This document shows positions 7,205-27,037 of a stretch of DNA of 64,000 bases, one piece after another. The notes beneath the pieces are model-generated. The model worked only from the letters and a program-made list of their open reading frames with translations, was not told the origin of the DNA and did no database searches. The translations under genes and the position numbers were made by a program. Each line of letters opens with the position of its first letter. Position 1 is the first letter of the stretch. The DNA comes from Nitrososphaera sp. GTDB lineage: Archaea; Thermoproteota; Nitrososphaeria; Nitrososphaerales; Nitrososphaeraceae. The DNA lies in assembly GCA_038201105.1 (NCBI GenBank), contig JBBRRH010000001.1:8864-72863 (forward strand), read 5' to 3'.

Positions 7205-7762
7205 GTGACTGAGCCGACGGTTTTAGATAAACGTAATTTGCCGAACAGTATACCCGAAAATATTCACGTAGTCGTAGAGATTCCAAAGGGGAGTAATATC
7301 AAATACGAATTTGATCCCACAACCGGATTTCTTTCCGTCGACAGAAAACTGTATACTGCCATGCATTATCCATGCAATTATGGTTTTATACCAAACACGT
7401 TGGAGGACGACGGAGATCCCGTTGATGTCCTGGTGTTAGGTGATTGGCCAGTGGTACCTATGTCAATGATAAAAGCAGTGCCCGTTGGTCTCCTATTTAC
7501 GAAAGATGAAGAAGGTAATGACTCTAAGATTATATCTGTACCCAACTCAAAAATAGATCCAAGATTTTCCAATATTAAAAATATTGATGACATTCCATCT
7601 TATCTACTTGACGAGATCAAACATTTTTTTGAACATTATAAAGAACTCGAACTTGGGAAATATGTGAAGGTAACAGGTTGGGGGAATAGAGAATCCGCTT
7701 CAGAAAAAATTTCCGAGGGTATTGAAAGATTCAAAAATGGAGATTCATCTAAAGGGCCTTGA
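7205..7762 (+). CDS. ppa: Inorganic pyrophosphatase (family I)
   Basis: KYEFD, YPCNYGFIPNTL, DGDPVDVLV, HFFEHYKELE. Confidence 0.97.
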   Translation: MTEPTVLDKRNLPNSIPENIHVVVEIPKGSNIKYEFDPTTGFLSVDRKLYTAMHYPCNYGFIPNTLEDDGDPVDVLVLGDWPVVPMSMIKAVPVGLLFTKDEEGNDSKIISVPNSKIDPRFSNIKNIDDIPSYLLDEIKHFFEHYKELELGKYVKVTGWGNRESASEKISEGIERFKNGDSSKGP

Positions 7763-8975
7763 ACTGTTCACTCCATCGGCTATAGGCACGCATCATGTCT
7801 ACACTAACACTCGGTTTTCTCATCTTTAGGATCTCTTTGAAATCCGATGGGGATATAGACCTAGTGTTTGCCTCCTCCTCCAGTGCCTTTCCACTTTGAA
7901 AAAGTTCATCGACTACTCGAAGCTGTGCGGACTGACAAATATCCTTTACGTCACTAGCACTATAGCCTTCGGTCAACTTGGCAAGATCTTCAGATTTCAG
8001 CGATTTTTCCATCTTTAGCCTTTCTGTATATTGGCGAAATAGATGTATCCTGGATGCCTGGTCTGGAAGAGAGACGTATATCCTTTTTTGGAAGCGTCGC
8101 AAGAATCCTGCCTCTAAACTCCAAGGTTTATTGGTTGCGCCAATTACATACAATTTTGAATCTTTGGATTTTCCATTTATTCCGTCCATTTCTGTAAGAA
8201 ATTGGTTCTTCACTCTTACCTCGCCCCCTACTTCACTGTTTCTTGTTCCAAGAAGTGAATCTATTTCGTCTATGAAAAGAAGGACTGGTACACCTTCAGA
8301 ATCGTGGAGTCTTCGAGCCAAATTGAAAAGTTTTGAAACATTCTTTTCTGCTTCCCCTAGCCATTTGCTCATCATAGAAGCCGCATCAACATTGATGAAA
8401 TAACCTTCTATCTCAGCGGCAGCGGCGGCTGCTAGTAAAGTTTTGCCACATCCTGGTGGCCCGTACAACAAAATGCCACGGGGCCACCCCAATGGAAATA
8501 GATCCATTCGCTTTGTAGGGTATACTATAGATTCTCTGATCGCACGTTTTGCATCATCTAATCCTATGACCTCTTCCCAAGAAACGTGTGGTTTGTCTTT
8601 CATCACCAGATCATCGAATTCAGCACCAAGACTTTCCGTTCCAGCATCTCTTTTACGATTAGTGCTGTTGGCCGGTGTATTTGATGAATAAGTTGTTGTC
8701 CTACGCGGGGTTTGATCTATTTTTTCATGGTGAACATCAGCAATGCCATTAGTCATTTGTAGTGCTTTTACTCTATTTTGGTAGGCGCTTGCTCTCTCCA
8801 TGTAAATCTTGTTCAATTTGTATTCTGGATATATTTGGATGAGCTTTACCAACGCCTCGATTGCTCTTTGATATGCTTGAATTGCCATCCCTCTAGAACC
8901 TTCTGAATCTAATCTTATGGCCTCAGCGGCATACTTACTGGCACTATTTTCCAATTCTTGTGGAGCAAGACTCAT
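7749..8975 (-). CDS. cdvC: Vps4/CdvC AAA ATPase with N-terminal MIT domain
   Basis: MIT-like helices, GPPGCGKT, FIDEID, GATNKPW, RRFQKR, C-terminal Vps4-like helix. Confidence 0.9.
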   Translation of the reverse strand: MSLAPQELENSASKYAAEAIRLDSEGSRGMAIQAYQRAIEALVKLIQIYPEYKLNKIYMERASAYQNRVKALQMTNGIADVHHEKIDQTPRRTTTYSSNTPANSTNRKRDAGTESLGAEFDDLVMKDKPHVSWEEVIGLDDAKRAIRESIVYPTKRMDLFPLGWPRGILLYGPPGCGKTLLAAAAAAEIEGYFINVDAASMMSKWLGEAEKNVSKLFNLARRLHDSEGVPVLLFIDEIDSLLGTRNSEVGGEVRVKNQFLTEMDGINGKSKDSKLYVIGATNKPWSLEAGFLRRFQKRIYVSLPDQASRIHLFRQYTERLKMEKSLKSEDLAKLTEGYSASDVKDICQSAQLRVVDELFQSGKALEEEANTRSISPSDFKEILKMRKPSVSVDMMRAYSRWSEQFKAL

Positions 8976-9786: not shown

Positions 9787-10983
9787 ATGACTGACGCTAA
9801 GACATATTCCTCATCACTGGAGTTTGATATAATTGGAAATCTCGAGGAATTCGGACTGTCAAAATACGAAGCTAGGGCATACATTACATTGGTTGAAAAA
9901 GGTACATTGGGCGCAAGTGAAATAGCTTACTACTCTCATTTACCTCGAACTAAAATCTATACAACTCTAAAAAAACTCGAGAAAAAGGGCCTTTCTACAA
10001 TAACAGAGCGGAAACCGCTGACTGCCTCTGCAGTCCCCCCCGAAGAAGGATTTATGGAGATTATGAAACTCCATGAAAAGAGATTAAAAAATATGAAAGG
10101 AATTGTTCTTGCACTAAAGAAGATCGAAAACGACGGTAGAAGATCATCCAACATGGAAGAAAAAAAATACATTATCCTTGATCCAATCTTTGCTGAGGAA
10201 AAAATTCGGGACCTGATTCAGGATGCCAGAAGCTCCATAAACGTAATGGTAGATTCGTGGGGGTTGAATGTCGTTTCTAGATGTAAAGAAGCCCTCCTGT
10301 CTGCCATTATGAGAGGAATTAAAGTCAGACTACTGATAGGATTTCAATGCGCAGACAACCCTAATATTCATTCAATTCCAAGAGGACTCGAAATTAGACT
10401 TCACCAAATTCACGATAATATTCTAACCATAGACACTTCAAAAGTAGTTACTATTGACGGGACCAATGGAAAAGCGGCTGTTCTTAATTCCTTGGATATC
10501 TTTGCATCTAGCCACATTCGGTTGTTTGAGGAAAAATGGGAAGGAGCAATAAAAGTTGGCAATCTTTGTGACTTGGAGAATGGTATACTTGTAAATGCAC
10601 TAAGATTAACAAGAACCCTTGAAGATAAAGTGGCAACTCAGATATATGATTATGTGGCTAGACCAGATTCAGATCTTACGCCAATAGTCAATGCAATAGA
10701 ACACGCCGGGATAAGAATTATGCAATACAGCATAAATGAATTGATACGATTGATAGATTATGCAATGAGATTATTTTATGAAGGAGATCTAAGATATGAC
10801 ATAATGTATAATATGTTAGTCTTAAGATCCGAGTCTTCTGAGAAATCGCTTATTCCTTGGGCTCTCGTAATCATGTCATATCTTAACAAAATTGGGAATG
10901 AGGCAAAGATGATATGTGATCCTGAGAAAGTAATAGGAAATCGTGTTCATTTAAAACTATCCAACCCAATATCTAGTTCATGA
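9787..10983 (+). CDS. TrmB-family transcriptional regulator
   Basis: FGLSKYEARAY...LPRTKIYTTLKKLEKKGL wHTH plus an effector-like C-terminal region. Confidence 0.85.
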   Translation: MTDAKTYSSSLEFDIIGNLEEFGLSKYEARAYITLVEKGTLGASEIAYYSHLPRTKIYTTLKKLEKKGLSTITERKPLTASAVPPEEGFMEIMKLHEKRLKNMKGIVLALKKIENDGRRSSNMEEKKYIILDPIFAEEKIRDLIQDARSSINVMVDSWGLNVVSRCKEALLSAIMRGIKVRLLIGFQCADNPNIHSIPRGLEIRLHQIHDNILTIDTSKVVTIDGTNGKAAVLNSLDIFASSHIRLFEEKWEGAIKVGNLCDLENGILVNALRLTRTLEDKVATQIYDYVARPDSDLTPIVNAIEHAGIRIMQYSINELIRLIDYAMRLFYEGDLRYDIMYNMLVLRSESSEKSLIPWALVIMSYLNKIGNEAKMICDPEKVIGNRVHLKLSNPISSS

Positions 10984-12754: not shown

Positions 12755-13671
12755 CTATGCGTAAGTTTTCTTATATTCGTGTTCTACCCACTTGATAAGA
12801 GAGCCAAAATCTGAGCTTACAAAATCAGGCCCTAGTGTCAGAGCCTTATCACACAGATCTTCTTTAGTAAAAAGAATTAATCTAATATCACCTGAAAATC
12901 TAGCTTTCGAACTTTTCAATGCATTGCAAAGAAATCTTAGGGTGTTCTCTGAGAACGAGAAAATCAGAATCAGAATCAGGCCATTTCTGTTTCCATATGT
13001 TTTCAATACGTATCTTTGCAGATCTATGTCAAAGAAAGGATCTATTTTTTGCTCGACATTTCCTATAAAAGTAGAATCCCAACCAGAAAGGTGCATTAGA
13101 GTAGAGGCGATTTTCGCAAAATGAATTGAATCTTCAGATCCTGCCACACATAAAGAATGCGCCCTTAGTTTGTTTCGAGCATCATATGGAATGAATCTGA
13201 TGAATGCCACAAGATCCATGGCGAAAGTAAGAATAGATAGCCTCTCGCTTTCCCCAATCCGTCCTCTGTTGTAGAGATTGTCGACGATATTTATAGTTGG
13301 TAATACCACATCGATTAATAGGCGCTCCTTTGTTATGTCAGAAGTTATAAGATTGTAGACAAGATTCTTTGCTTCCGTATCGTTACCAGAAAGTAAAGAA
13401 TCTAGAAACTTCTGCTGAACCTGAACGTAATTGACGGGAAACTCGAGTTGAGAGACGCTTTGGTCTAAATACCATATATTCAACGCTCCAATTTTTTTTT
13501 TCTAATAAGTCCTTTGGCTAGCATCAAATCCAAGTATCTTGCCAAAGTCATTCTATTTATCTTGGTCCTAGATGCCAACTCTACACCAGAAAGTCCAGCA
13601 TGACTTTCAGCGAGCTCCGAATATACTTTCCTTGTTATCTCTTCTAAAGTGTATCTTCTGTACAATGACAT
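12755..13671 (-). pseudogene. wHTH plus cobalamin-binding-like domain regulator, split by a frameshift in an A10 tract (or a sequencing error)
   Basis: ORF 13480-13671 (HTH: GLSGVELASRTKINRMTLARYL) ends RKKKLER*; one extra A in T10 at 13492-13501 gives RKKKIGALNIWYL, continuing into ORF 12755-13483 (helical cap plus Rossmann-like GWDSTFIG). Confidence 0.75.
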
Positions 13672-14291
13672 ATAAAATATCAGTTATTCTGTTTTTTAAT
13701 GGTTTCCTTTGAATAGTTTGCTAAAATGCAAGTCAAACGGATCTTCAACATGACAGGCGACTTTGCGTGGGCTTTTGAGTATTCTATCCGTAAAAAAGCT
13801 TGTTTATTTATATTCGGCGATTAACTTTCCTGATTTTATTTTAAATTCATCTATGACTAATTAGTTTATTGTGGATCCGCGCTACTTGATTTCAACAAAT
13901 TGCATCGTTTAGATACAGTACAAAACTTTGGCGAATTTTGTGAAGCACAACATGTGGTAATGTATAACCTCTCAAACATCAGTTTCCTTGTATGATAACT
14001 TTGAAGTCTGAAACAAATCAGGATTCTAATGTAAGCCGGATCAGATCGTATGTACAAACCCGTCTTGATTAATGTTGTCAGCTAACAAAATCAAGTGATT
14101 GCAATCCTGTTTACATATTATCATCCATGATTCAACGTTGCCATTTAGAAGATACCAACAGATCCCAGATTTGAACGGTCCAGGAAACAAGCTGACGAAA
14201 TCGCAAGTTTCGAATTTTAGCCGCTATTAAAAGCCAAACATCCTGTAACAACCAAAAATATAAATTTAGTTTGAAATTGCTTGCATTAGCC

Positions 14292-15506
14292 ATGACGAAA
14301 GACAAGGTGATTCTGGCTTTTTCTGGAGGTCTGGATACATCAGTTTGCGTTAAGTATCTTCAGATGGAGCATAACATGGATGTTATCACAGCAACTGTTG
14401 ATTGCGGGCAGGATGATGATTTTGATGCAATATGTCGAAAATCTGAATTACTAGGTACTATAAAACATGTGTATGTTGACGCTAGAACTGATTTTGTAGA
14501 AAATTATGTGTCTAAAGCTATTAGAGCCAATGCCCTATATCAAGGAAAGTATCCTCTTGCCACTGCCTTAGCTCGTCCGCTCATTGCATCCAGAACAATG
14601 GAAGTCGCACGCAAGGAAGGGGCTAGATATGTTTCCCATGGCTGTACTGGGAAAGGGAACGATCAGGTGAGGTTGGATCTTGCACTACGTGCAATTGATC
14701 CCAAAATTGGGATCATCGCCCCCATAAGAGACATGAATTTGACCAGAGATATTGAAATCAAGTATGCCAACGAACACAACATACCCATTAATGAGGAAAC
14801 TAAACGGTATAGCATTGACGTAAATTTGTGGGGTAGAGCTATTGAGGGCGGACAACTGGAAGATCCGTGGTTTGAGGTCCCCGACGACGCATTACACCTA
14901 GTCAAGAAAGCAGAGAATTCAATTGAATATATTGAACTCGAATTTGAACAGGGAATACCGAAATCCGCAGACGGTAAAAAAATGAATTTAGTTGACCTGA
15001 TAGCATACCTGAATGAGAAAGTTGGAAGGCACGGGGTGGGTATAATTGATCATGTGGAAGACAGGATAGTAGGAATCAAGTCCCGAGAAATATACGAAGC
15101 TCCAGCGGCTACTGCCATAATTGAAGCGCACAGAGACCTTGAAAAAATGGTTCTTACGAATTTTGAATTTAGATTTAAGCAGACCGTTGAGGAGGAATGG
15201 AGTTGGTTAGCATATAGTGGACTTTGGTTTGATCCCCTAAGAGAAGATCTGGATACATTTATAGATGCAACCCAAAAAAGGGTTACTGGAAAAGTAAGGA
15301 TGAAGCTGCAAAATGGATCTTTGAATGTTGTTGGAAGAAAATCTGAATTTTCGTTGTATAGTAATGATCTTGCAACATACACTTCTAAATCGACATTTGA
15401 CCAGCGTTTGGCAAAGGGTTTTGTAGAATTATGGGGCATGCAAACGGTACTTGCAAACAGTCTAAAGACAAGTGACTCTAGAAAAGAAGGTGAAAAAATA
15501 ATATGA
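14292..15506 (+). CDS. argG: Argininosuccinate synthase
   Basis: LAFSGGLDTS, YPLATALARP, HGCTGKGNDQVR, IKSREIYEAP; ATG at 14292 preferred. Confidence 0.97.
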   Translation: MTKDKVILAFSGGLDTSVCVKYLQMEHNMDVITATVDCGQDDDFDAICRKSELLGTIKHVYVDARTDFVENYVSKAIRANALYQGKYPLATALARPLIASRTMEVARKEGARYVSHGCTGKGNDQVRLDLALRAIDPKIGIIAPIRDMNLTRDIEIKYANEHNIPINEETKRYSIDVNLWGRAIEGGQLEDPWFEVPDDALHLVKKAENSIEYIELEFEQGIPKSADGKKMNLVDLIAYLNEKVGRHGVGIIDHVEDRIVGIKSREIYEAPAATAIIEAHRDLEKMVLTNFEFRFKQTVEEEWSWLAYSGLWFDPLREDLDTFIDATQKRVTGKVRMKLQNGSLNVVGRKSEFSLYSNDLATYTSKSTFDQRLAKGFVELWGMQTVLANSLKTSDSRKEGEKII

Positions 15507-15676
15507 ACATAGAGTGTAAGGATTGTGGAGCGCAGATAACCGTGACCCAAGACTCGATGGTTGGCGAAATCATAACTTGTCCTGACTGTGGTGCTGATTT
15601 TGAGATAACCCTTAAAACTGGAGAATCAATCGAAATCAAGCCTGCAGAATCAGTCGGTGAAGACTGGGGACAATAG
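15503..15676 (+). CDS. lysW: LysW-type amino-group carrier protein, C-terminus EDWGQ (57 aa)
   Basis: Manual translation MNIECKDCGAQITVTQDSMVGEIITCPDCGADFEITLKTGESIEIKPAESVGEDWGQ; two CxxC; ATGA overlap with argG. Missing from the ORF track. Confidence 0.92.
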   Translation: MNIECKDCGAQITVTQDSMVGEIITCPDCGADFEITLKTGESIEIKPAESVGEDWGQ

Positions 15677-16537
15677 ATGGTGCAGGTATGTGTAATTTAT
15701 GATAAAATTCGTTTCGAAGAAAAGATCCTGCATAACAAAATAAAAGAAAAAGGTTTAACATCCAATCTTGTTGATGGTAAATCTCTAATTTTCAATACGA
15801 ATTCAGAGAAAGTAGACTTTGAGTTAGGAGATATCATTTTTCAGCGAGAGATAAGCCACTATAGAGGCCTGTATATTACCTCGTGTTTGGAATCACTAGG
15901 GTTTAAAGTGATCAATCCATTTTCTGTCAGTGAAATATGTGGGAATAAGCTACTCACCAGCTTGGCATTAGTGAAACACGACGTGCCTACTCCCAATACT
16001 AGCTTTGCGTTTAGCTCCAACTCAGCTCTTCAATTGATGGATAAGTTAGGGTATCCTCTGGTAGTGAAACCACTTGTAGGATCTTGGGGAAGAGGAGTTT
16101 ATCTAATTAAGGATAGATCAGCAGCTGAAATGCTAATAGATAGTAGAGAGGAAATTGGAAGTCCACTTTCTCGAATTTATTATATCCAAGAGAAGATAGA
16201 TCGTCCGCCTAGGGATATAAGATGCATAGTCATCGCTGAAAATATTGTTGCATCAATTTATCGAAATGCTGCAGAAAACGAATGGCTAACGAATGTGGCA
16301 ATTGGTGGAACGACAGAACAAGCACAGATGAATCTGGAGTTAGAAGAAATCACGCTAAGAGCTGCAAAAGCCGTAGGTGGAGGAATACTTGGCATTGACT
16401 TGATGGAGGATGCGAAGAGAGGATACTTGGTTCATGAGATAAATAACACGGTCGAATTTAGAGGCGCGTCAATGGTTTCTACCCAAGATATTCCCGCAGC
16501 CATGATTGATTACCTGGTCCATGAATGCAGAAAGTAA
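15677..16537 (+). CDS. argX: ATP-grasp glutamate--LysW ligase (ArgX type)
   Basis: RimK/LysX family: KPLVGSWGRG, DIR, TNVAIGG, HEINNTVEFRG; G after EFx as in ArgX, and argG context. Confidence 0.82.
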   Translation: MVQVCVIYDKIRFEEKILHNKIKEKGLTSNLVDGKSLIFNTNSEKVDFELGDIIFQREISHYRGLYITSCLESLGFKVINPFSVSEICGNKLLTSLALVKHDVPTPNTSFAFSSNSALQLMDKLGYPLVVKPLVGSWGRGVYLIKDRSAAEMLIDSREEIGSPLSRIYYIQEKIDRPPRDIRCIVIAENIVASIYRNAAENEWLTNVAIGGTTEQAQMNLELEEITLRAAKAVGGGILGIDLMEDAKRGYLVHEINNTVEFRGASMVSTQDIPAAMIDYLVHECRK

Positions 16538-16679: not shown

Positions 16680-17732
16680 ATGAAAGTAGGAGTCATAGGA
16701 GCATCTGGCTACGTCGGGGGCGAACTTTTGAGATTATTGGTTGTGCATCCCCAGGTAGAAATAAGCATGGTCACGTCAAGGCAGCATGTTGGAGAATATG
16801 TTCACAGAGTACATCCAAGTCTGAAAAGCTTCATAGACTTGACGTTCTCGCCAATGGATATTGACAAGCTAACCAGTAAATGTGATATTGTCTTTGTTTC
16901 TGTTCCACATGGGAATGCGGTTAATGTCGTCAAAGAGCTTTATGAAAGAGGTATCAAGATAATTGATTTATCTGCAGATTTTAGATTGAAGAATCCTAAA
17001 GATTATGTGAAATGGTATGGATGGGAGCACCCTTTCCCGGAAATGCTCTCAAAATCTACTTATGGAGTTCCAGAACTATATAGAAATAAAATTAAGGAGT
17101 CGAAGCTAGTATCTTGCCCAGGATGTATGGCAGTAACATCAATTCTTGCTTTAAAGCCTTTGATTGAGAAAAACTTGGTAGATACGGAACATGTTATTGT
17201 TGATAGCAAGATAGGCTCTTCGGGCGCTGGCTCTCAGGAGGGAATTGGAACTCACCATGCTATGCGATATGGAGTCATTAGACCGTACAAACCCGCCAAG
17301 CACAGACATACCGGAGAAATTGAACAAGAATTGGGCATACTTGCACACAAGAAAGTGATGGTCAGTATGAGTCCCCATGCGGTCAATTTGGTCAGGGGAA
17401 TATTGACTACCAATCATGTCTTTTTGAAAGAGCCTGTCTCGGAAATAGAGTTGTGGAAATATTACAGAGATGCTTACAAAAGTGAACCGTTCATCAGATT
17501 AATAAGAGACAAAAAGGGATTGTACAAGTTCCCTGATCCGAAATTTGTGGTAGGATCTAATTTTTGCGATGTAGGATTTGATTTAGATGAAGATAATAAT
17601 AGAGTTGTAGCGCTTTCAGCCTCTGATAATTTAATGAAAGGTGCAGCAGGCTCGGCAATACAGAATATGAATATTATGAGTGGATTTAGTGAAGTGGAAG
17701 GCCTAAGATACACACCGTTAACCCCGGTATGA
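16680..17732 (+). CDS. argC: LysW-aminoadipate/glutamate semialdehyde dehydrogenase (ArgC/LysY)
   Basis: GASGYVGGEL, IIDLSADFRL, CPGC, DNLMKGAAG. Confidence 0.94.
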   Translation: MKVGVIGASGYVGGELLRLLVVHPQVEISMVTSRQHVGEYVHRVHPSLKSFIDLTFSPMDIDKLTSKCDIVFVSVPHGNAVNVVKELYERGIKIIDLSADFRLKNPKDYVKWYGWEHPFPEMLSKSTYGVPELYRNKIKESKLVSCPGCMAVTSILALKPLIEKNLVDTEHVIVDSKIGSSGAGSQEGIGTHHAMRYGVIRPYKPAKHRHTGEIEQELGILAHKKVMVSMSPHAVNLVRGILTTNHVFLKEPVSEIELWKYYRDAYKSEPFIRLIRDKKGLYKFPDPKFVVGSNFCDVGFDLDEDNNRVVALSASDNLMKGAAGSAIQNMNIMSGFSEVEGLRYTPLTPV

Positions 17733-18529
17733 TCGTCATAAAAATTGGGGGTAGCATAGTAAACGATTTGCATTCATCCGCTATAAAAGACATTCACAAT
17801 ATTATGTCGAACGAAAAGTTATTGTTGGTTCACGGAGGAGGAAAGGAGGTAACATCTATAGCAACTCAACTTGGAAAGGAACAGCGGTTTATAGTATCTC
17901 CGGGGGGTATAAGAAGTAGATATACTGACAAAGAAACTGCTGAAATCTATACCATGGTGATGTCGGGCAAGATAAACAAACTGATAGTCAAAATGTTACT
18001 CAAGGAAGAGATTAAAGCAGTCGGTCTTTCTGGAATAGATAATCACATTTTGGGAGCAATTAGAAAGAGCAAATTAACTGTCATAAATGAAAAGGGAAGA
18101 AAGATGGTAATCGACGGGGGTTACACTGGTAAGATAAAAACAGTGGGAACAGAATTATTAAACTTGTTATTAAACGAAGGATATGTCCCAGTCATTTCTC
18201 CAGTTGCACTCAGCGAAGAATTTGATTTTTTGAACGTTGATGGAGATAGAGCTGCAGCTTATATTGCAGGTAGCCTAGGTGCAGACAAGGTAATATTTCT
18301 TACAAATGTTAATGGTCTATATTTGGATGACAATCTAGTACAGAAGATTTCACTTGAAGGAGCAAAGGAAATATTGCCGAAAATTGGTTTTGGAATGGAA
18401 AAAAAAGTTCTAGCTTGTACAGAAGCTCTCTCTCTTGGTGCCAACGAAGCTATTATTTCTTCAGGAATGGTCTCCAACCCGATCTCCTCTGCAATAGCCC
18501 ACAGCAATTGTACGGTGATTTCTAAATGA
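17729..18529 (+). CDS. argB: LysW-aminoadipate/glutamate kinase (ArgB/LysZ)
   Basis: VIKIGGS, VHGGG, LNVDGDRAA, GMEKK. Confidence 0.93.
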   Translation: MIVIKIGGSIVNDLHSSAIKDIHNIMSNEKLLLVHGGGKEVTSIATQLGKEQRFIVSPGGIRSRYTDKETAEIYTMVMSGKINKLIVKMLLKEEIKAVGLSGIDNHILGAIRKSKLTVINEKGRKMVIDGGYTGKIKTVGTELLNLLLNEGYVPVISPVALSEEFDFLNVDGDRAAAYIAGSLGADKVIFLTNVNGLYLDDNLVQKISLEGAKEILPKIGFGMEKKVLACTEALSLGANEAIISSGMVSNPISSAIAHSNCTVISK

Positions 18530-19713
18530 CAGACGTAGAAGGCGAGGATTCCTACCTACTGAACGTTTATCAGAGATTCCCTATTACGGTTGAGAGGGGT
18601 GAGGGTGCGACAATTTGGGATGCAGACGGCAAGAAATACATTGATTGTATGGGTGGCTATGGTATTGGTCTAATAGGCTATTCCAATAAGAAGGTAATTG
18701 CCGGAGTAGAAGAGCAGCTGAAAAAAATTATGGTCTGTCACATGTCGGCTTATAACAATACCCGATTAAGATTTCTGAAAAAACTAACTGATATTGCGCC
18801 TCCCGGTGTAACAAAAATATTTTTCAGTAACAGTGGTGCAGAATCAGTGGAAGCAGCTTTAAAGTTTGCACGCAAGTATAGTCAAAAACCTGGAATTATT
18901 TCTATGTATGGTGGATACCATGGGAAGACATTTGGTGCTCTATCGGTGACGCACAATGCGAAGTATAGAAAGTCTTTTGTTCCTTTACTGGATAACATTA
19001 AATTTATCCCATATGGGAACGTAGGTAGCCTAATCGATGCAATTGATGACAAGACTGGGACGGTGATTTTGGAGCCGATTCAGGGAGAAACAGGAGTCAT
19101 TTTGCCTCCAGATGGTTTCCTTAATTCAGTAAGAAAAATATGTGATGAAAAAAATGTTGTACTAATATTTGATGAAATCCAGACAGGTCTGGGAAGGACT
19201 GGCAAAATGTGGGCTGGAGAGCACTGGGAAACAGTACCTGACATTATGTGCCTTGCCAAAGGAATTGCAGCGGGTATCCCTATGGGAGTAACATTTTTGA
19301 AACCTAAGGTAGCTGAAGCAATGAGAGTAGGTGAACACTCCTCTACATTTGCTGGCAATCCAATTGCGTGCGCAGCCGGGAATGCGGTCTTAGATGTGAT
19401 CAGTGAAGGCAATTTGGTAAAGAGGGCTGCTGAAACAGGAAATCACTTTAAATGCGGGCTACTTGAGCTTAAAGAGCGCCATCCTATTATCAGGGAAGTT
19501 AGGGGTTTAGGAATGATGCTCGCAATGGAAATGCGATTTGACGTGCGAGACATATTACTTGATGGCATCAAGAATGGACTCTTAATGTTGTATTCCGGAA
19601 GAAACATAATCCGGTTGCTTCCCCCATTGATAATGGATAAGGACATGGTCGACCAAGCCTTGTCGGTAATGGATTCCCTTTTAGTAGCAGAGGCGAAAAG
19701 ACATAGTATCTGA
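18526..19713 (+). CDS. argD: Class III PLP aminotransferase (ArgD/LysJ)
   Basis: NSGAESVEAA, YHGKT, EPIQGETG, FDEIQTGLGRTG, AKG. Confidence 0.94.
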   Translation: MTDVEGEDSYLLNVYQRFPITVERGEGATIWDADGKKYIDCMGGYGIGLIGYSNKKVIAGVEEQLKKIMVCHMSAYNNTRLRFLKKLTDIAPPGVTKIFFSNSGAESVEAALKFARKYSQKPGIISMYGGYHGKTFGALSVTHNAKYRKSFVPLLDNIKFIPYGNVGSLIDAIDDKTGTVILEPIQGETGVILPPDGFLNSVRKICDEKNVVLIFDEIQTGLGRTGKMWAGEHWETVPDIMCLAKGIAAGIPMGVTFLKPKVAEAMRVGEHSSTFAGNPIACAAGNAVLDVISEGNLVKRAAETGNHFKCGLLELKERHPIIREVRGLGMMLAMEMRFDVRDILLDGIKNGLLMLYSGRNIIRLLPPLIMDKDMVDQALSVMDSLLVAEAKRHSI

Positions 19714-19744: not shown

Positions 19745-20134
19745 TTGGACATCCTTAAAAATGACTCAAGAAAGTCATTCGTCGACATAGGTAAGGAAAT
19801 TGGTTTATCCGAATCAGCGGTGAGGCGAAGAGTCAGAAATTTAGTTGACACAGGTATCATAAAGCGTTTTACAGTAGACGTTGATTCGGGAGATAAAACT
19901 AGTGCAATAACACTCCTATCCATTAGTTCTTCTGCAGATACTGCTGCAGTCACGGCAAAACTGCCTGATGTCAAAGGCGTTAAAATAGTTTATGAAATAA
20001 CAGGTCAATTTGACATCGCTGCTATAATATCTGCTCCATCTATATCTGAGATAAATCACTGCATCGACCTGATTCGCAAAATTGAAGGAGTACATGACAC
20101 AAATACGGTAATCATTCTAAGGACGCTAAGTTGA
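19745..20134 (+). CDS. lysM: Lrp/AsnC family regulator (LysM-like); true start probably upstream
   Basis: DILKNDSRKSF...GLSESAVRRRVRNL HTH plus RAM domain, inside the lys/arg operon. Confidence 0.82.
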   Translation: MDILKNDSRKSFVDIGKEIGLSESAVRRRVRNLVDTGIIKRFTVDVDSGDKTSAITLLSISSSADTAAVTAKLPDVKGVKIVYEITGQFDIAAIISAPSISEINHCIDLIRKIEGVHDTNTVIILRTLS

Positions 20135-20216: not shown

Positions 20217-21413
20217 ATGTCGCTGAAATCAGACGATCCTAATCATTTTGCGCACCAGCTTAACGAACCTCAGCTAGTTACCAAGAATATAAGAATTCTG
20301 GATTCTACTCTCAGGGAGGGCGAACAGCATCCCGGTGTAGCGTTTACCATTAAGCAGAGAATACAGATCGCATGGATGCTTGATTCCTTCGGCGTTGACC
20401 AAATAGAGATAAGTCCTGTTGTATCTCACGATCACTTTGAAGCAACAAAGACGATAATAAAGCAAGATTTAAGGGCAGATATACTAGCCCATGTTAGGGC
20501 CATCAAATCGGATGTCGATGTGGCAATAGACACAGGTGCTACATGGATAGCCACTTACATGGGGATATCAGACATACATCTTTCAGCCAAGCTAAGGATA
20601 TCCCGTGAGGAGGCCAAAATCAGAGCACTAGAAGTGGCAGATTATATAAAATCACACGGCTTAAAATCACGCTTTACAATGGAAGATGCTAGCAGAACTG
20701 ATCCTAACTTCTTGATTGAGATGTGTAAGGAAATGAACTCGCGGGGTATTGAGCGCATCAGTATTCCAGATACTGTTGGCATAATGAGACCACATGGCAT
20801 GTATAATCTCGTAAGAATGGTGTGTGAGAATATTGATTTGTCCAGATCTTCAATAGATGTCCATTGTCATAATGATGTAGGTCTCGCGCTTGCTAACGCA
20901 CTGGCGGGATGTGAGGCTGGAGCTGATCAAATCCACACGACCATAGACGGCCTCGGCGAGCGAACTGGAATACCTTCACTTGCGGAAACTGCGGTCGCCC
21001 TCACATTAATCTATAAAGTACCGAATAATTTTAGGTTGCATCTCCTGCGCGATCTATCGAGGACCATAAGCGAATATACAGAAATACCTACTCCAGAATC
21101 GAAACCCATAGTAGGAGATAGTGCGTACAAACACAAGGCAGGTACCCACTTGGCTGCTATATTGAGAAACCCATCGGCCTATGAAATTCTTGAACCGAAG
21201 ATTGTGGGGAACAGAAGAAAGATAGTTTTTGGAGAACTTGCCGGCAAGAATGGCGCTGCTTACCTTCTGTCACTTCTTGGTTTGGAGACTTCCAAAGCAG
21301 AAGCAGAAAAGATGGCAAAAGGCTTGAAAGAATTGAGAATGGGCGATATATTAGAACTGTATCTGGACGAAAGGCTGGAAAGTAAAATACTTAACGATGC
21401 CCAATTAAAATAA
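20217..21413 (+). CDS. hcs: Homocitrate synthase (LeuA family)
   Basis: DSTLREGEQ, HCHND, GLGERTG, HKAGTH; lacks the LeuA regulatory domain; upstream of lysW-lysX. Confidence 0.85.
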   Translation: MSLKSDDPNHFAHQLNEPQLVTKNIRILDSTLREGEQHPGVAFTIKQRIQIAWMLDSFGVDQIEISPVVSHDHFEATKTIIKQDLRADILAHVRAIKSDVDVAIDTGATWIATYMGISDIHLSAKLRISREEAKIRALEVADYIKSHGLKSRFTMEDASRTDPNFLIEMCKEMNSRGIERISIPDTVGIMRPHGMYNLVRMVCENIDLSRSSIDVHCHNDVGLALANALAGCEAGADQIHTTIDGLGERTGIPSLAETAVALTLIYKVPNNFRLHLLRDLSRTISEYTEIPTPESKPIVGDSAYKHKAGTHLAAILRNPSAYEILEPKIVGNRRKIVFGELAGKNGAAYLLSLLGLETSKAEAEKMAKGLKELRMGDILELYLDERLESKILNDAQLK

Positions 21414-21426
21414 AGGTGTTAGGGAA

Positions 21427-21594
21427 ATGACAAAATGTCCAGAATGTGACGCAGAGATAAAGATCGCTGAAGATGCAATGGAAGGAGAAATTGTGACATG
21501 TCCAGATTGTGGAGCCAGCTACGAGATTATCAAGTCTGGAATGGTGTTTGACTTGAGGCCTGCACAATCAATTGGAGAGGATTGGGGCGAGTGA
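21427..21594 (+). CDS. lysW: LysW amino-group carrier protein, canonical EDWGE terminus (55 aa)
   Basis: Manual translation MTKCPECDAEIKIAEDAMEGEIVTCPDCGASYEIIKSGMVFDLRPAQSIGEDWGE. Missing from the ORF track. Confidence 0.95.
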   Translation: MTKCPECDAEIKIAEDAMEGEIVTCPDCGASYEIIKSGMVFDLRPAQSIGEDWGE

Positions 21595-22460
21595 ATACTG
21601 GGAAGACTGGATCTTCTCTTTTCATACTCTATGACCAACTTCGTTGGGAAGAAAAAGCAATTATAGAATCTGCAAAGAAGAAAGGAATTGATATTGGTAT
21701 TGCGAATTGCAGGGACGCTATTATCGACCTAGAGCAGAATATGGAATATTCAGATAGAATTATGATTCAAAGATGTATCAGTTATTACAATAACGTTCAC
21801 TCCACTGCAGCTATAGAAGGATTAGGAGCAACGGTAATTAATTCTCTGCAGACGGCAATCTATTGCGGAAATAAGTTATTTTCACATATGGAATTAAGAA
21901 AGGCGGGCGTTCCCGTCCCCAGAGCATTCTGCGCTTTTTCGCAAGAGTCTGCTCTAATAGGATTAGGCGAGCGTGGATACCCAAAAGTTATAAAACCTGT
22001 GGTCGGAAGTTGGGGGAGACTGATAGCATTGTTAAAGGACAAAGACTCGGCAGAAGCAGTTATTGAAAGTAGAGAACACATGTACCCGCTATATCATGTT
22101 TACTATTTAGAGGACTATATTACAAGACCTCCCCGTGATATAAGAGCCATCGTTGTTGGTGATAATGTAGCTGCAGCGATATACCGATATTCAGGCGATG
22201 GCTCATGGAAGACAAATATGGCGCTGGGTGGCACGGCAGAGGCCTGCGAAATTACGAAGGAGTTAGAAGACATATGTCTGCGAGCTGCCAAAGCAGTCAA
22301 TGCTGAAATAGCGGGTGTGGATTTGATGGAAAGCGATGAACAGGGTTTGCTTGTACATGAAGTCAATAATACTACTGAATTCAAGAACACTGTACGAGTG
22401 ACAGGCGTGGATATTCCATCTATTATGATAGACCATTGTATTAAATTAAAAAAACATTAA
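21591..22460 (+). CDS. lysX: Alpha-aminoadipate--LysW ligase
   Basis: KPVVGSWGR, DIR, HEVNNTTEFKNT (NT signature); GTG at 21591 overlaps the lysW stop (GTGA). Confidence 0.88.
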   Translation: MNTGKTGSSLFILYDQLRWEEKAIIESAKKKGIDIGIANCRDAIIDLEQNMEYSDRIMIQRCISYYNNVHSTAAIEGLGATVINSLQTAIYCGNKLFSHMELRKAGVPVPRAFCAFSQESALIGLGERGYPKVIKPVVGSWGRLIALLKDKDSAEAVIESREHMYPLYHVYYLEDYITRPPRDIRAIVVGDNVAAAIYRYSGDGSWKTNMALGGTAEACEITKELEDICLRAAKAVNAEIAGVDLMESDEQGLLVHEVNNTTEFKNTVRVTGVDIPSIMIDHCIKLKKH

Positions 22461-22469
22461 CAGATCGAA

Positions 22470-23612
22470 TTGGTCTCTCCAGCTTACGCGGTGGAACTAC
22501 TGAAAAATTCATTAGAGATCTATACACCCTCCAGGTCGGAGGGAGGGCTTGCGAACCTTATTAAGGAAAGGTGTATGAGCGATTTAGGATTCGAAAGAGT
22601 TACCATCGACAGTGTAGGAAATGTGATTGCAACAAAGGGTTCTGGAGAACCGAAAATGCTTCTTTGTGGCCACATGGATACCGTTCCAGGTCAGGTACCG
22701 GTTAGGATTGACTCAGGATTCATATATGGAAGAGGTGCATCTGACGCGAAAGGACCTCTTATTTCAATGCTCCTAGCGGCCTCGGAATTTAAACAAAAGG
22801 GAACCATAATTTTTGCAGGTGTAGTTGATGAGGAGGGGAACGCTACAGGTGTGAAAGAACTTGTCAAGAGCAAGCTGTTCCCAGATTATGCAATTTTCGG
22901 AGAGCCGAGTGGCATAAGCAATATAACAATTGCTTACAAGGGGAGATTAGCACTCCGTCTAATTTGTGATGTAGGTGAGACCGCACATGCAAGTGCACCG
23001 TGGCTTGCAATGAATTCCATTGAAGAGATGCAGTATATTTGGAATGATCTTAAGAGGATATTAAATGAAGGTAATATAGAATTAAACAAGAAAAGTACTG
23101 CTGTTACTTGCAGTCTTACTGAAATTTCAGGCGGAACGAGTCACAATGTAACGCCGCAAAAGTGTAAAGCCACGATAGATATAAGGATACCAACCAACAG
23201 GACATGTCTAGAAATTCTAGGCATTGTTGACGAGATTCTCAACAAATTGGCCAAACAAAGGAATGTAAAGCTGACATATAGAATAGAAGATATGACTGAA
23301 TCATTCGAAGCTGAACACTCTTCAGCTCTTGTGAGAGCACTTTCGCTATCTATTTTGGATGTGTGTAGGACACGACCTATGTTGATAAGAAAAACCGGAA
23401 CGGGCGACATGAATGTTTTGGGTAATTCTTTAAAAATTCCTGTAGTAACATATGGGCCAGGTGAGCCACATGCATCACACTCAAAAGATGAAAGAATTGA
23501 GATAGAGTCTTACCTTACAAGTATCGAAGTATTCGGTCGGGCACTATTCCACATATCACGATTACATCAGATCAAAAAGCAAAATGTTAACAAACCAAAA
23601 ATAATAAACTAA
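22470..23612 (+). CDS. lysK: LysW-lysine/ornithine hydrolase (M20, LysK/ArgE)
   Basis: GHMDTV, GRGASDAKG, DEE, GEPS, YGPG, HS.DE. Confidence 0.92.
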   Translation: MVSPAYAVELLKNSLEIYTPSRSEGGLANLIKERCMSDLGFERVTIDSVGNVIATKGSGEPKMLLCGHMDTVPGQVPVRIDSGFIYGRGASDAKGPLISMLLAASEFKQKGTIIFAGVVDEEGNATGVKELVKSKLFPDYAIFGEPSGISNITIAYKGRLALRLICDVGETAHASAPWLAMNSIEEMQYIWNDLKRILNEGNIELNKKSTAVTCSLTEISGGTSHNVTPQKCKATIDIRIPTNRTCLEILGIVDEILNKLAKQRNVKLTYRIEDMTESFEAEHSSALVRALSLSILDVCRTRPMLIRKTGTGDMNVLGNSLKIPVVTYGPGEPHASHSKDERIEIESYLTSIEVFGRALFHISRLHQIKKQNVNKPKIIN

Positions 23613-23625
23613 AGGTCAAATTGTA

Positions 23626-24720
23626 ATGTTAACTTTCATCGGAATTGGCATATACGGGATCTCTGGCTTGAGCCAAAAAGCAGCAGCAATCCTAGCCATC
23701 TGTGATTTAATATATGTAGAAAGATTCACGTCTTCAATCTCCAATGACGATTTACAAAACCTAACATCCTTATTTTCTTCGTCTAATAGTAAACAGGTGA
23801 TTCCAGTTAAACGATGGTTTGTTGAAGATGGAAGAGAAATCCTGCAAGAGGCCAAGGACCGAAATGTGGCCTTGCTAAGTTATGGAGATCCCATGATTGC
23901 AACAACATTTATGGAATTGAGACTCAGGGCAATTGATAGAAATGTTAAAGTCGAAGTAGTTTATGGAGCATCCGGAGTGACCTCACTCATCAGTGAATGC
24001 GGGCTTCAGATTTACAAGATTGGGAAAATTGTTACTATGATGGAAGAAAGTCATTCTGCGATTAGTGTTTATAATTCTGTAACCACTGATCTTCAGCTCA
24101 AGTGCCATACACTCATTCTTACGGAATATAGATCCAATGAAGACCAGTCTATATTTTTTTTGGATCCCAGGCAAGTAATTTTAAGATTGCTGGAAGTGGA
24201 AAAAGATCTTAGATACAACATCATAACTTTTGACTCGTTCATCATAGTCGCTTCTCGCATTGGTACCAAAGAACAAAAAATACTAAGTGGTAAAGTAAGC
24301 TCTTTGTTAGGAATAGAGTATGGGCAAGGACCCCATTCATTAATTTTTCCCGGTAAATTACACTTTATTGAAGAAGAGGGAATAATGAAGTTAACAGAGA
24401 CCCTTGATTCACCTTCTGACAACACAGCTTATTTTGATAATATTGCCACGAGAATGATAAAAAAATATGTTCCAATGATTCATGATGAAATAAATCAAAT
24501 ACGCAGCCGAGAGACGTCTAGATTAGACTATAACAAAAAAATTGTAGAGATATTAGATAATGCAGAGTACTATGTTGATGACGCAATTAACTTTATGGAT
24601 CAGGGAAAAAATGAACTTGCAGTATTGTCCATTGGATATGCGGACGGTTTGGTAGACTGTTTAAAGTTCGTGTCGCTAGGAAAGAAATCCGACAAAAGTA
24701 ACCTAAGCCTGAACTTTTAA
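23626..24720 (+). CDS. dph5: Diphthine synthase with C-terminal DUF357-like extension
   Basis: FIGIG, YVERFTS, GDPMIATT, GPHSLIFPG; tail NAEYYVDDA...SIGYADGLVD. Confidence 0.88.
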   Translation: MLTFIGIGIYGISGLSQKAAAILAICDLIYVERFTSSISNDDLQNLTSLFSSSNSKQVIPVKRWFVEDGREILQEAKDRNVALLSYGDPMIATTFMELRLRAIDRNVKVEVVYGASGVTSLISECGLQIYKIGKIVTMMEESHSAISVYNSVTTDLQLKCHTLILTEYRSNEDQSIFFLDPRQVILRLLEVEKDLRYNIITFDSFIIVASRIGTKEQKILSGKVSSLLGIEYGQGPHSLIFPGKLHFIEEEGIMKLTETLDSPSDNTAYFDNIATRMIKKYVPMIHDEINQIRSRETSRLDYNKKIVEILDNAEYYVDDAINFMDQGKNELAVLSIGYADGLVDCLKFVSLGKKSDKSNLSLNF

Positions 24721-26925: not shown

Positions 26926-27037
26926 GGAGGGATAGCGAAGCATGGCCAACCGCGCAGGACTCAAGATGATTATTATCGGCGTGACATGTGAAATCCCGTC
27001 CCTAAGGGGTTCGTGGGTTCAAATCCCACTCCCTCCA
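26926..27037 (+). tRNA. tRNA-Leu(CAA) with 27-nt intron at 37/38 (26966-26992)
   Basis: Acceptor GGAGGGA/TCCCTCC, CT-CAA-G then intron, long variable arm, GTGGG-TTCAAAT-CCCAC; one A:C mismatch in the anticodon stem. Confidence 0.88.

Follow-up and report, generated by a model that had tools for sequence, protein, structure and literature searches.

An encoded C-terminal glutamine in place of the acceptor glutamate in LysW/ArgW-type carrier proteins of Nitrososphaeria

In the characterised lysine- and arginine-biosynthetic systems that employ an amino-group carrier protein of the LysW/ArgW family, the substrate is joined to the γ-carboxyl of the terminal Glu of the carrier, and the E54A variant of Natrinema ArgW leads to arginine auxotrophy (PMC10433800). 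What becomes of this chemistry when the carrier gene encodes Gln at its terminus? The question is raised by an ArgW-type carrier gene at 15503–15676 on the forward strand of the window, which is the whole stretch of 64,000 nucleotides of Nitrososphaera sp. DNA analysed here (assembly GCA_038201105.1, contig JBBRRH010000001.1, positions 8,864 to 72,863). An earlier note on this DNA had recognised two short carrier genes, one before lysX ending in EDWGE and one between argG and argX ending in EDWGQ (CAA TAG); the codon and both endings are confirmed in the window. The note had also remarked that a terminal Gln lacks the γ-carboxyl, and this is a genuine puzzle in view of the terminal Glu of the characterised systems and the auxotrophy of E54A (PMC10433800). 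Comparative sequence evidence indicates that in Nitrososphaeria the encoded Gln is of old standing and maintained by selection, with several exchanges with Glu during evolution. Ammonia-oxidising archaea therefore probably activate the carrier in a step that has yet to be described, or use a variant chemistry. To one form of this, a pro-carrier whose terminal amide would be removed once before canonical γ-glutamyl chemistry, we assign an even chance, by analogy with a known system.

The carrier gene is an open reading frame (ORF) that runs from ATG to TAG and encodes 57 amino acids (MNIECKDCGAQITVTQDSMVGEIITCPDCGADFEITLKTGESIEIKPAESVGEDWGQ). Its C-terminus, ...AESVGEDWGQ, departs from the family in lacking the terminal Glu. 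The carrier ATG overlaps the argG stop (ATGA) and the ligase ATG lies directly 3' of the carrier stop, at 15677, so that argG, the carrier and the ArgX-type ligase look translationally coupled. The product scores 48.8 bits against Pfam PF21344 Zn_ribbon_LysW (cut-off 27) and 82.6 bits against NCBIfam NF041070 'alpha-aminoadipate/glutamate carrier protein LysW/ArgW' (cut-off 75), and 280 homologues were found with E ≤ 1e-3. Its alignment to 3wwl, 3vpb_E and 5k2m_E, all solved LysW chains, extends over the whole length; the solved chains, from Thermus, Sulfolobus and Thermococcus, all terminate in EDWGE. The family scores and the homologues exclude a chance ORF and, together with the matches to chains in the PDB, bear out the presence of a real LysW-type gene before argX. 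Across 119 homologues the zinc-ribbon cysteines C5, C8, C26 and C29 and the residues E53, D54, W55 and G56 of the acidic tail are invariant, and the remaining protein sequence is clearly constrained. An AlphaFold2 (AF2) model based on the same 119 homologues predicts a β zinc-ribbon, with a predicted local distance difference test score (pLDDT) of 88–94 for residues 1–50 and a low-confidence tail (pLDDT 59); the modelled ribbon and flexible tail match the known LysW architecture. By every criterion of sequence the protein belongs to LysW/ArgW, except for the residue that defines the chemistry. It is probably a functional ArgW-type amino-group carrier, co-transcribed with argG and the ArgX-type ligase, that would be loaded in the cell.

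The Gln is not peculiar to this genome. One genome from each GTDB species was scanned, which gave 80 loci; almost all carry the label of Nitrososphaerales, of its members or of higher-rank names, two are labelled Nitrosopumilales, and one contig (L027) comes from a genome labelled Chitinophaga. The argX-linked carrier ends in Q in 73 of the 79 instances in these species loci, with CAA as the codon in 59 and CAG in 14. Among the best 120 of the homologue clusters, 110 end in GEDWGQ, nine in GEDWGE, and the remaining one has a frameshift. In a neighbour-joining tree built from ArgX, LysY and LysZ the terminal codon has changed at least 11 times and the residue only twice; with at least nine synonymous against two nonsynonymous changes, the Gln appears to be under selection and not an error. 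Four independent metagenome runs yielded contigs that preserve this CAA TAG (word depth 15–22), even though in two of them about 20 other positions within the same 600 bases are not as in the window. The CAA TAG is likewise intact in contigs of four soil metatranscriptome runs, approximately 96% identical and spanning argG, carrier and argX, although contig depth measures expression poorly and some DNA may have been carried over. An error in sequencing or assembly, or a private mutation in a degenerating copy, thus has a negligible probability: errors do occur in this small gene, as the frameshifted relatives P0111 and P0440 attest, but four assemblies agree, the great majority of the best clusters are Q-ending, both Gln codons are in use and the protein is constrained. 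The earlier note had allowed for a read error or a private substitution; both can be set aside here. A constraint on the nucleotides from the abutting argX start, as the cause of C in place of G in the terminal codon, was also considered and rejected, as both CAA and CAG occur with three different stops; it is further contradicted by lysX-linked carriers, which have another overlap geometry and still show Q.

Some side observations concern the quality of the records. The second half is frameshifted, with loss of the EDWGQ tail, in P0111, P0440 (Candidatus Nitrososphaera sp. FF02), P0123, P0181 and P0201, and some frameshifted entries lie on very long contigs, probably from long-read assemblies. 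The carrier gene is absent from many ORF calls and its annotation is error-prone. Two entries, L027 (NZ_DATCVJ010001056.1, labelled as a Chitinophaga sp. metagenome-assembled genome) and P0099 (labelled Methanosarcina sp.), contain carrier/argX sequences of the Nitrososphaeraceae type, and their labels probably reflect binning contamination.

When the C-termini were aligned, as the earlier note had proposed, Q proved to be conserved in argX-linked copies but to occur on lysX-linked copies as well. In the following, combinations are given as the terminus of the argX-linked carrier followed by that of the lysX-linked carrier. Thirty-two Nitrososphaerales clusters have both carriers on the locus: 18, including the window, are Q/E, ten are Q/Q and four are E/Q, so that the lysX-linked carrier is Q-ending in 14 of the 32. 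E/Q also occurs in the Nitrosopumilales loci L081–L083 and the Nitrosomirales locus L087, and E/E in a single lineage, L088 (NCBI GCA_053491895.1), with carriers at 10001–10174 and 15789–15956 and the same gene order. All four combinations therefore exist, and the gene order is the same whatever the state. A rule that every cluster keeps at least one Q is true of the 32 Nitrososphaerales clusters and of two Nitrosopumilales/Nitrosomirales species (four loci); it was dropped because L088 is E/E. The terminal state has switched at least twice per paralogue on the tree, and the metagenomic proteins P0019 and P0021 are 88–89% identical to the window carrier yet end in E. The view that Gln marks a dedicated arginine carrier is not upheld by this distribution, given the Q-ending lysX-linked carriers and the E of some argX-linked ones. 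An ArgX-type ligase does adjoin the Gln-terminated carrier of the window, as the earlier note had it, but Q is not a mark of linkage to ArgX.

The Gln also occurs outside the class. Locus L089 is a classical aminoadipate cluster with homoaconitase subunits, homoisocitrate dehydrogenase, a Q-terminated LysW, LysX, LysY and LysZ, in which this LysW is the only carrier called on the 5.5-kb contig; in L091 a Q-terminated LysW lies 3' of a homocitrate-synthase-like gene. Among 1.84 billion cluster representatives searched, 14 of the 91 intact family members are Q-ending, a figure slightly biased by the query, which is itself Q-ending. Divergent LysW-family proteins with GEDWGQ were observed at L084:10001–10165 (Logan SRR29483047, 83.9 kb) and L085:10001–10192 (ENA ERZ25039494, 40.5 kb); the proteins of the two loci are P0284 and P0272, with P0274 and P0278 as relatives and possibly, by their similar sequences, P0141 and P0144. 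Lysine or arginine genes were not found on the L084 and L085 contigs, which hold many small ORFs without a Pfam match, phosphoadenosine phosphosulfate (PAPS) reductase, Evr1/Alr sulfhydryl oxidase, HNH, aspartic-protease-like and radical SAM genes. These contigs look viral or like mobile elements that bear a carrier mimic; a PHROGs scan of them matched PAPS reductase and HNH only, which does not establish a viral origin.

What the terminus must provide is suggested by what it never is. Of 469 distinct carriers, 345 terminate in Q and 124 in E, and none in any other residue; the Q:E ratio is biased by the queries used, whereas the restricted alphabet is not. K, D, G, A, V, H, R, L and P, to which a change of a single nucleotide would lead, are never terminal in this set. 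Since only Glx occurs, a five-carbon side chain with a γ-carbonyl, and not the α-carboxyl, appears to be what is required. The partner enzymes do not follow the terminus: no column in the ArgX or LysX alignments separates E-partnered from Q-partnered enzymes, and none in LysZ, LysY or LysJ tracks the terminus of the argX-linked carrier. With respect to the lysX-linked terminus, one column in LysZ, one in LysY and two in LysJ separate the states but are confounded with the E/Q clades, and LysK has several clade-specific columns for both carriers, likewise confounded with phylogeny. The ArgX enzymes of L069 and L045 share 95% identity, although the former serves an E carrier and the latter a Q carrier. 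This suggests that E and Q are interchangeable without changes in the partner enzymes, and the handling of Q and E adducts by one LysZ/LysY/LysJ/LysK set is simplest if the linkage is identical in both. Ammonia-oxidising archaea are autotrophs and must make their own lysine and arginine, and because ten clusters hold only Q carriers, the Q carriers must be competent. A non-carrier regulatory role, the other possibility raised in the earlier note, is unlikely for the same reason.

The reading that we consider best placed is that of a pro-carrier. The side-chain amide of the terminal Gln would be removed at first use to give Glu or a γ-glutamyl phosphate. Hydrolysis by LysK, ligase-catalysed phosphorolysis with bound phosphate, as proposed for Dop, and the action of an unlinked amidase are candidate routes; LysK is the nearest candidate deamidase because it already cleaves γ-glutamyl amides of the same residue. 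ArgX would then join glutamate to the γ-carboxyl, LysK would release ornithine and, since hydrolysis by LysK regenerates Glu, the carrier would thereafter cycle in the Glu form. The Q and E forms differ in mass by 0.984 Da. What the sequence data show is the identity of the gene, its surroundings, how Q is conserved and distributed, and its occurrence in RNA-derived assemblies; that the carrier is loaded, that the amide is removed and by which enzyme are inferred.

Several points weigh against a pro-carrier. Hydrolases of the M20 family, to which LysK belongs, as a rule require that the leaving group bear a carboxylate, and for this reason the hydrolysis of a primary amide by LysK may be poor. 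In the 80-locus comparison, clusters with Q carriers contain neither a dedicated deamidase gene nor any other additional gene. A neutral pro-form would need to confer some benefit to explain so strong a retention of Gln over synonymous change. The lack of covariation is weak evidence, because independent E/Q switches are few (two to three per paralogue). The Q/Q counts refer to carriers on the cluster locus, and a third, E-terminated carrier elsewhere would escape them. The evidence for the model is, moreover, at the level of sequence, and we give it about an even chance.

The strict alphabet also bears on the proposal that the ligases load Glu or aminoadipate on the terminal α-carboxyl in the manner of RimK, the side chain being Glu or Gln indifferently. 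LysX/ArgX and RimK form one family, as matches to RimK models and to RimK chains in the PDB indicate, a Gln terminus offers an ATP-grasp enzyme only its α-carboxylate, and E and Q are exchanged without changes in the ligases. Other residues would be expected at the terminus under this proposal but are absent, and Natrinema ArgW E54A keeps its α-carboxyl and is nevertheless an arginine auxotroph (PMC10433800). The GSWGR and EDWG motifs and the tail length are moreover those of γ-ligating systems, all characterised homologues use the γ-carboxyl, and LysZ, LysY, LysJ and above all LysK would face another linkage geometry; we regard α-carboxyl ligation as unlikely. Much the same low weight is given to direct activation of the amide, in which ArgX or LysX would phosphorylate the amide oxygen, or phosphorolyse the amide with ADP and phosphate. 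That the amino group of the substrate would then displace ammonia with no free Glu-form intermediate seems equally improbable. Dop, a homologue of PafA, has been proposed to attack the amide through an active-site phosphate or the amide oxygen (PMC8599861). The cluster has no separate deamidase gene, and the ligase sequences do not differ between E and Q carriers, both as this mechanism would have it; against it, ArgX and LysX have no sequence feature that sets them apart from the characterised enzymes, and the argument is purely one of inference. We know of no ATP-grasp enzyme that activates a carboxamide, which counts further against it. Were the ligase itself the activating enzyme, direct activation would be a sub-case of the pro-carrier model, and new for ATP-grasp enzymes. 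Taken as one proposition, direct use of the Gln carrier by the ligases, whether by displacement of the side-chain amide or by ligation to the α-carboxyl, is possible but doubtful. If true, lysine and arginine synthesis would depart from the textbook γ-glutamyl route, and retention of Gln might also couple carrier activation to nitrogen status.

A non-loadable protein that binds ArgX or downstream enzymes as a decoy or regulator, with the E paralogue carrying both pathways as in Sulfolobus, is very unlikely. The window does contain an E-terminated carrier 6 kb downstream, Sulfolobus runs both pathways on one LysW (PMC10433800), and Q-ending LysW-like genes lie on virus-like or mobile-element-like contigs without biosynthetic neighbours, a setting in which a decoy would be plausible. 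The decoy has to be set against the ten species clusters in which all carriers are Q-terminated and against seven species in which the Q is on the lysX side instead (four Nitrososphaerales and three Nitrosopumilales/Nitrosomirales species). The apparent translational coupling of the argX-linked paralogue to ArgX, the conservation of this paralogue across the class, and the Q-terminated LysW of L089, the sole carrier called in its classical lysine cluster, also speak against it. As to whether a separate branch of carrier chemistry is at hand, as the earlier note had thought possible, the puzzle is real and wider than that note had it, being not specific to arginine, but the evidence favours, without proof, maturation of the pro-carrier to ordinary Glu chemistry.

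The two ligases of the window are 44% identical to each other; both contain the GSWGR motif, which recognises the EDWG tail, and both are matched by RimK family models and PDB RimK chains. The Nishiyama group has described a five-residue specificity motif, F-I-T-NS in LysX and I-Y-V-GF in ArgX (PMC12998189). The argX-linked ligase has I-I-V-GA, which is ArgX-like at three of the five positions, and the lysX-linked ligase has I-I-M-NT, which shares N with the LysX type; the former motif is kept across 75 orthologues and the latter across 30. Genomic context (argG versus homocitrate synthase) agrees, and the ArgX and LysX assignments appear reasonable. Two independent ArgX lineages are E-partnered, the L041/L064/L067/L073/L075 clade and L069. 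As a side observation, both have Leu at ArgX position 4 and Asn at position 47 (about 15686–15688 and 15815–15817), positions taken by Val and Asp in Q-partnered enzymes closely related to that of L069; Leu4 and Asn47 are also found in some Q-partnered enzymes and are thus not diagnostic, and their occurrence may be convergence or chance.

The features of the cluster are collected in Table 1. The E-terminated sister carrier is 52% identical to the Gln-terminated one. Within the 64-kb window lysY, lysZ, lysJ and lysK are present in one copy each, and a single LysZ/LysY/LysJ/LysK set is predicted to serve both carrier/ligase pairs, which are about 6 kb apart. The order argG–carrier–argX–lysY–lysZ–lysJ–lrp–hcs–carrier–lysX–lysK is common to the 80 species loci and recurs in Nitrosopumilales and Nitrosomirales, and the argX-linked carrier paralogue is conserved across the class.

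Table 1. Carrier genes and associated features of the window.
Feature	Coordinates	Strand	Evidence or remark
argG, argininosuccinate synthase	14271..15506	+	PF00764, PF20979; NF001770 526.7 bits
ArgW-type amino-group carrier (putative), 57 aa	15503..15676	+	PF21344, NF041070, AF2 model, PDB LysW matches
Encoded terminal Gln codon CAA (15671-15673), then stop TAG (15674-15676)	15671..15676	+	
ArgX-type ATP-grasp ligase, GSWGR, motif I-I-V-GA	15677..16537	+	PF08443, PF22626, TIGR02144; TtLysX/StArgX alignment
lysY/argC-type [carrier]-glutamyl/aminoadipyl-phosphate reductase	16680..17732	+	TIGR01850 422.5 bits
lysZ/argB-type [LysW]-aminoadipate/[LysW]-glutamate kinase	17729..18529	+	NF010662 287.8 bits
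lysJ/argD-type aminotransferase	18526..19713	+	PF00202; TIGR00707 407 bits, just below 410.05-bit cut-off
Lrp/AsnC-family regulator	19745..20134	+	PF01037, PF13404; same position in most loci
Homocitrate synthase-like enzyme (aminoadipate route, first step)	20217..21413	+	PF00682, PF22617; TIGR02146 365.9 bits, below cut-off
LysW-type carrier, 55 aa, GEDWGE (GAG TGA)	21427..21594	+	PF21344 56.2 bits, NF041070 84.7 bits
LysX-type ATP-grasp ligase, motif I-I-M-NT	21582..22460	+	TIGR02144 309.2 bits
lysK, M20 [LysW]-lysine/ornithine hydrolase	22470..23612	+	TIGR01902 256 bits, above cut-off; NF003367 268.5, below 363-bit cut-off

Directly 3' of lysK, at 23626–24720 (+), lies a TP_methylase fused to DUF357 (diphthine-synthase-like). 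The same gene is found downstream of lysK in the Nitrosopumilales/Nitrosomirales loci L081, L082, L083, L086 and L087, and because this arrangement recurs in both orders the neighbourhood appears to be conserved across the class. Upstream of argG, a 63-amino-acid winged-helix protein (13480–13671, −) has a 4-base overlap with a 242-amino-acid protein (12755–13483, −) that has no Pfam match; the pair (12755–13671, −) may be a two-gene regulatory unit. Further away are an AAA ATPase that carries a MIT domain at its N-terminus (7749–8975, −), an architecture as in the archaeal Vps4/CdvC cell-division ATPase, and a 112-base Rfam tRNA match (26926–27037, +; 36.7 bits) for which ARAGORN makes no call and which may be an intron-containing archaeal tRNA.

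Ammonia-oxidising archaea are key to the global nitrogen cycle and are among the most abundant microbes on Earth. In most carriers of this major archaeal class the acceptor Glu is not encoded, and in some species it is encoded nowhere in the whole cluster. Full-text searches returned no paper on a C-terminal glutamine in LysW, in amino-group carrier protein (AmCP) or in ArgW, subscription literature lying outside their reach. The finding bears on annotation, in which such short genes are often missed by gene callers or labelled LysW/ArgW without mention of the absent acceptor residue, as well as on metabolic models; that of Nitrosopumilus maritimus assumes the Sulfolobus reaction for these genes (PMC6038301).

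The closest known systems are those of LysW/ArgW in Thermus thermophilus, Sulfolobus, Thermococcus and Natrinema gari. Their carriers have the same size, four-Cys zinc ribbon and acidic EDWG tail, and the carrier gene is likewise directly upstream of a GSWGR LysX/ArgX ligase, with LysZ, LysY, LysJ and LysK. They differ in that every characterised member has the substrate-bearing terminal Glu where Gln is encoded here. Sulfolobus pairs a single carrier with two ligases, Thermococcus has a single carrier and a single ligase, and only ArgW is present in Natrinema (PMC10433800); in the window, two carrier paralogues with a ligase apiece share one downstream enzyme set. RimK, which acts on ribosomal protein S6, is homologous to LysX/ArgX and likewise modifies the C-terminal residue of a small protein, but extends the α-carboxyl with glutamates, whereas the characterised LysX/ArgX enzymes use the γ-carboxyl. 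The Pup/Dop/PafA system offers a functional analogy and not homology: in it, too, a small protein is ligated through the γ-carboxyl of a C-terminal Glu. In some actinobacteria Pup is encoded with a C-terminal Gln (mycobacterial PupQ) and in others with Glu, with the same ligase; Dop deamidates PupQ before γ-carboxyl ligation and also removes Pup from substrates (PMC8599861). The carriers of Nitrososphaeria resemble Pup in that the terminus may be Gln in one lineage and Glu in a near relative while the ligation machinery stays the same, and the part of isopeptide-cleaving enzyme, taken by Dop in the Pup system, falls to LysK. The folds and enzymes are unrelated (glutamine-synthetase-like in the one, ATP-grasp and M20 in the other), Pup is a degradation tag for proteins but LysW a metabolite carrier, and deamidation of the carrier is putative. 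If there is a maturation step, the carriers would be a second, independent case of a Gln pro-form of the Pup type; otherwise the chemistry differs.

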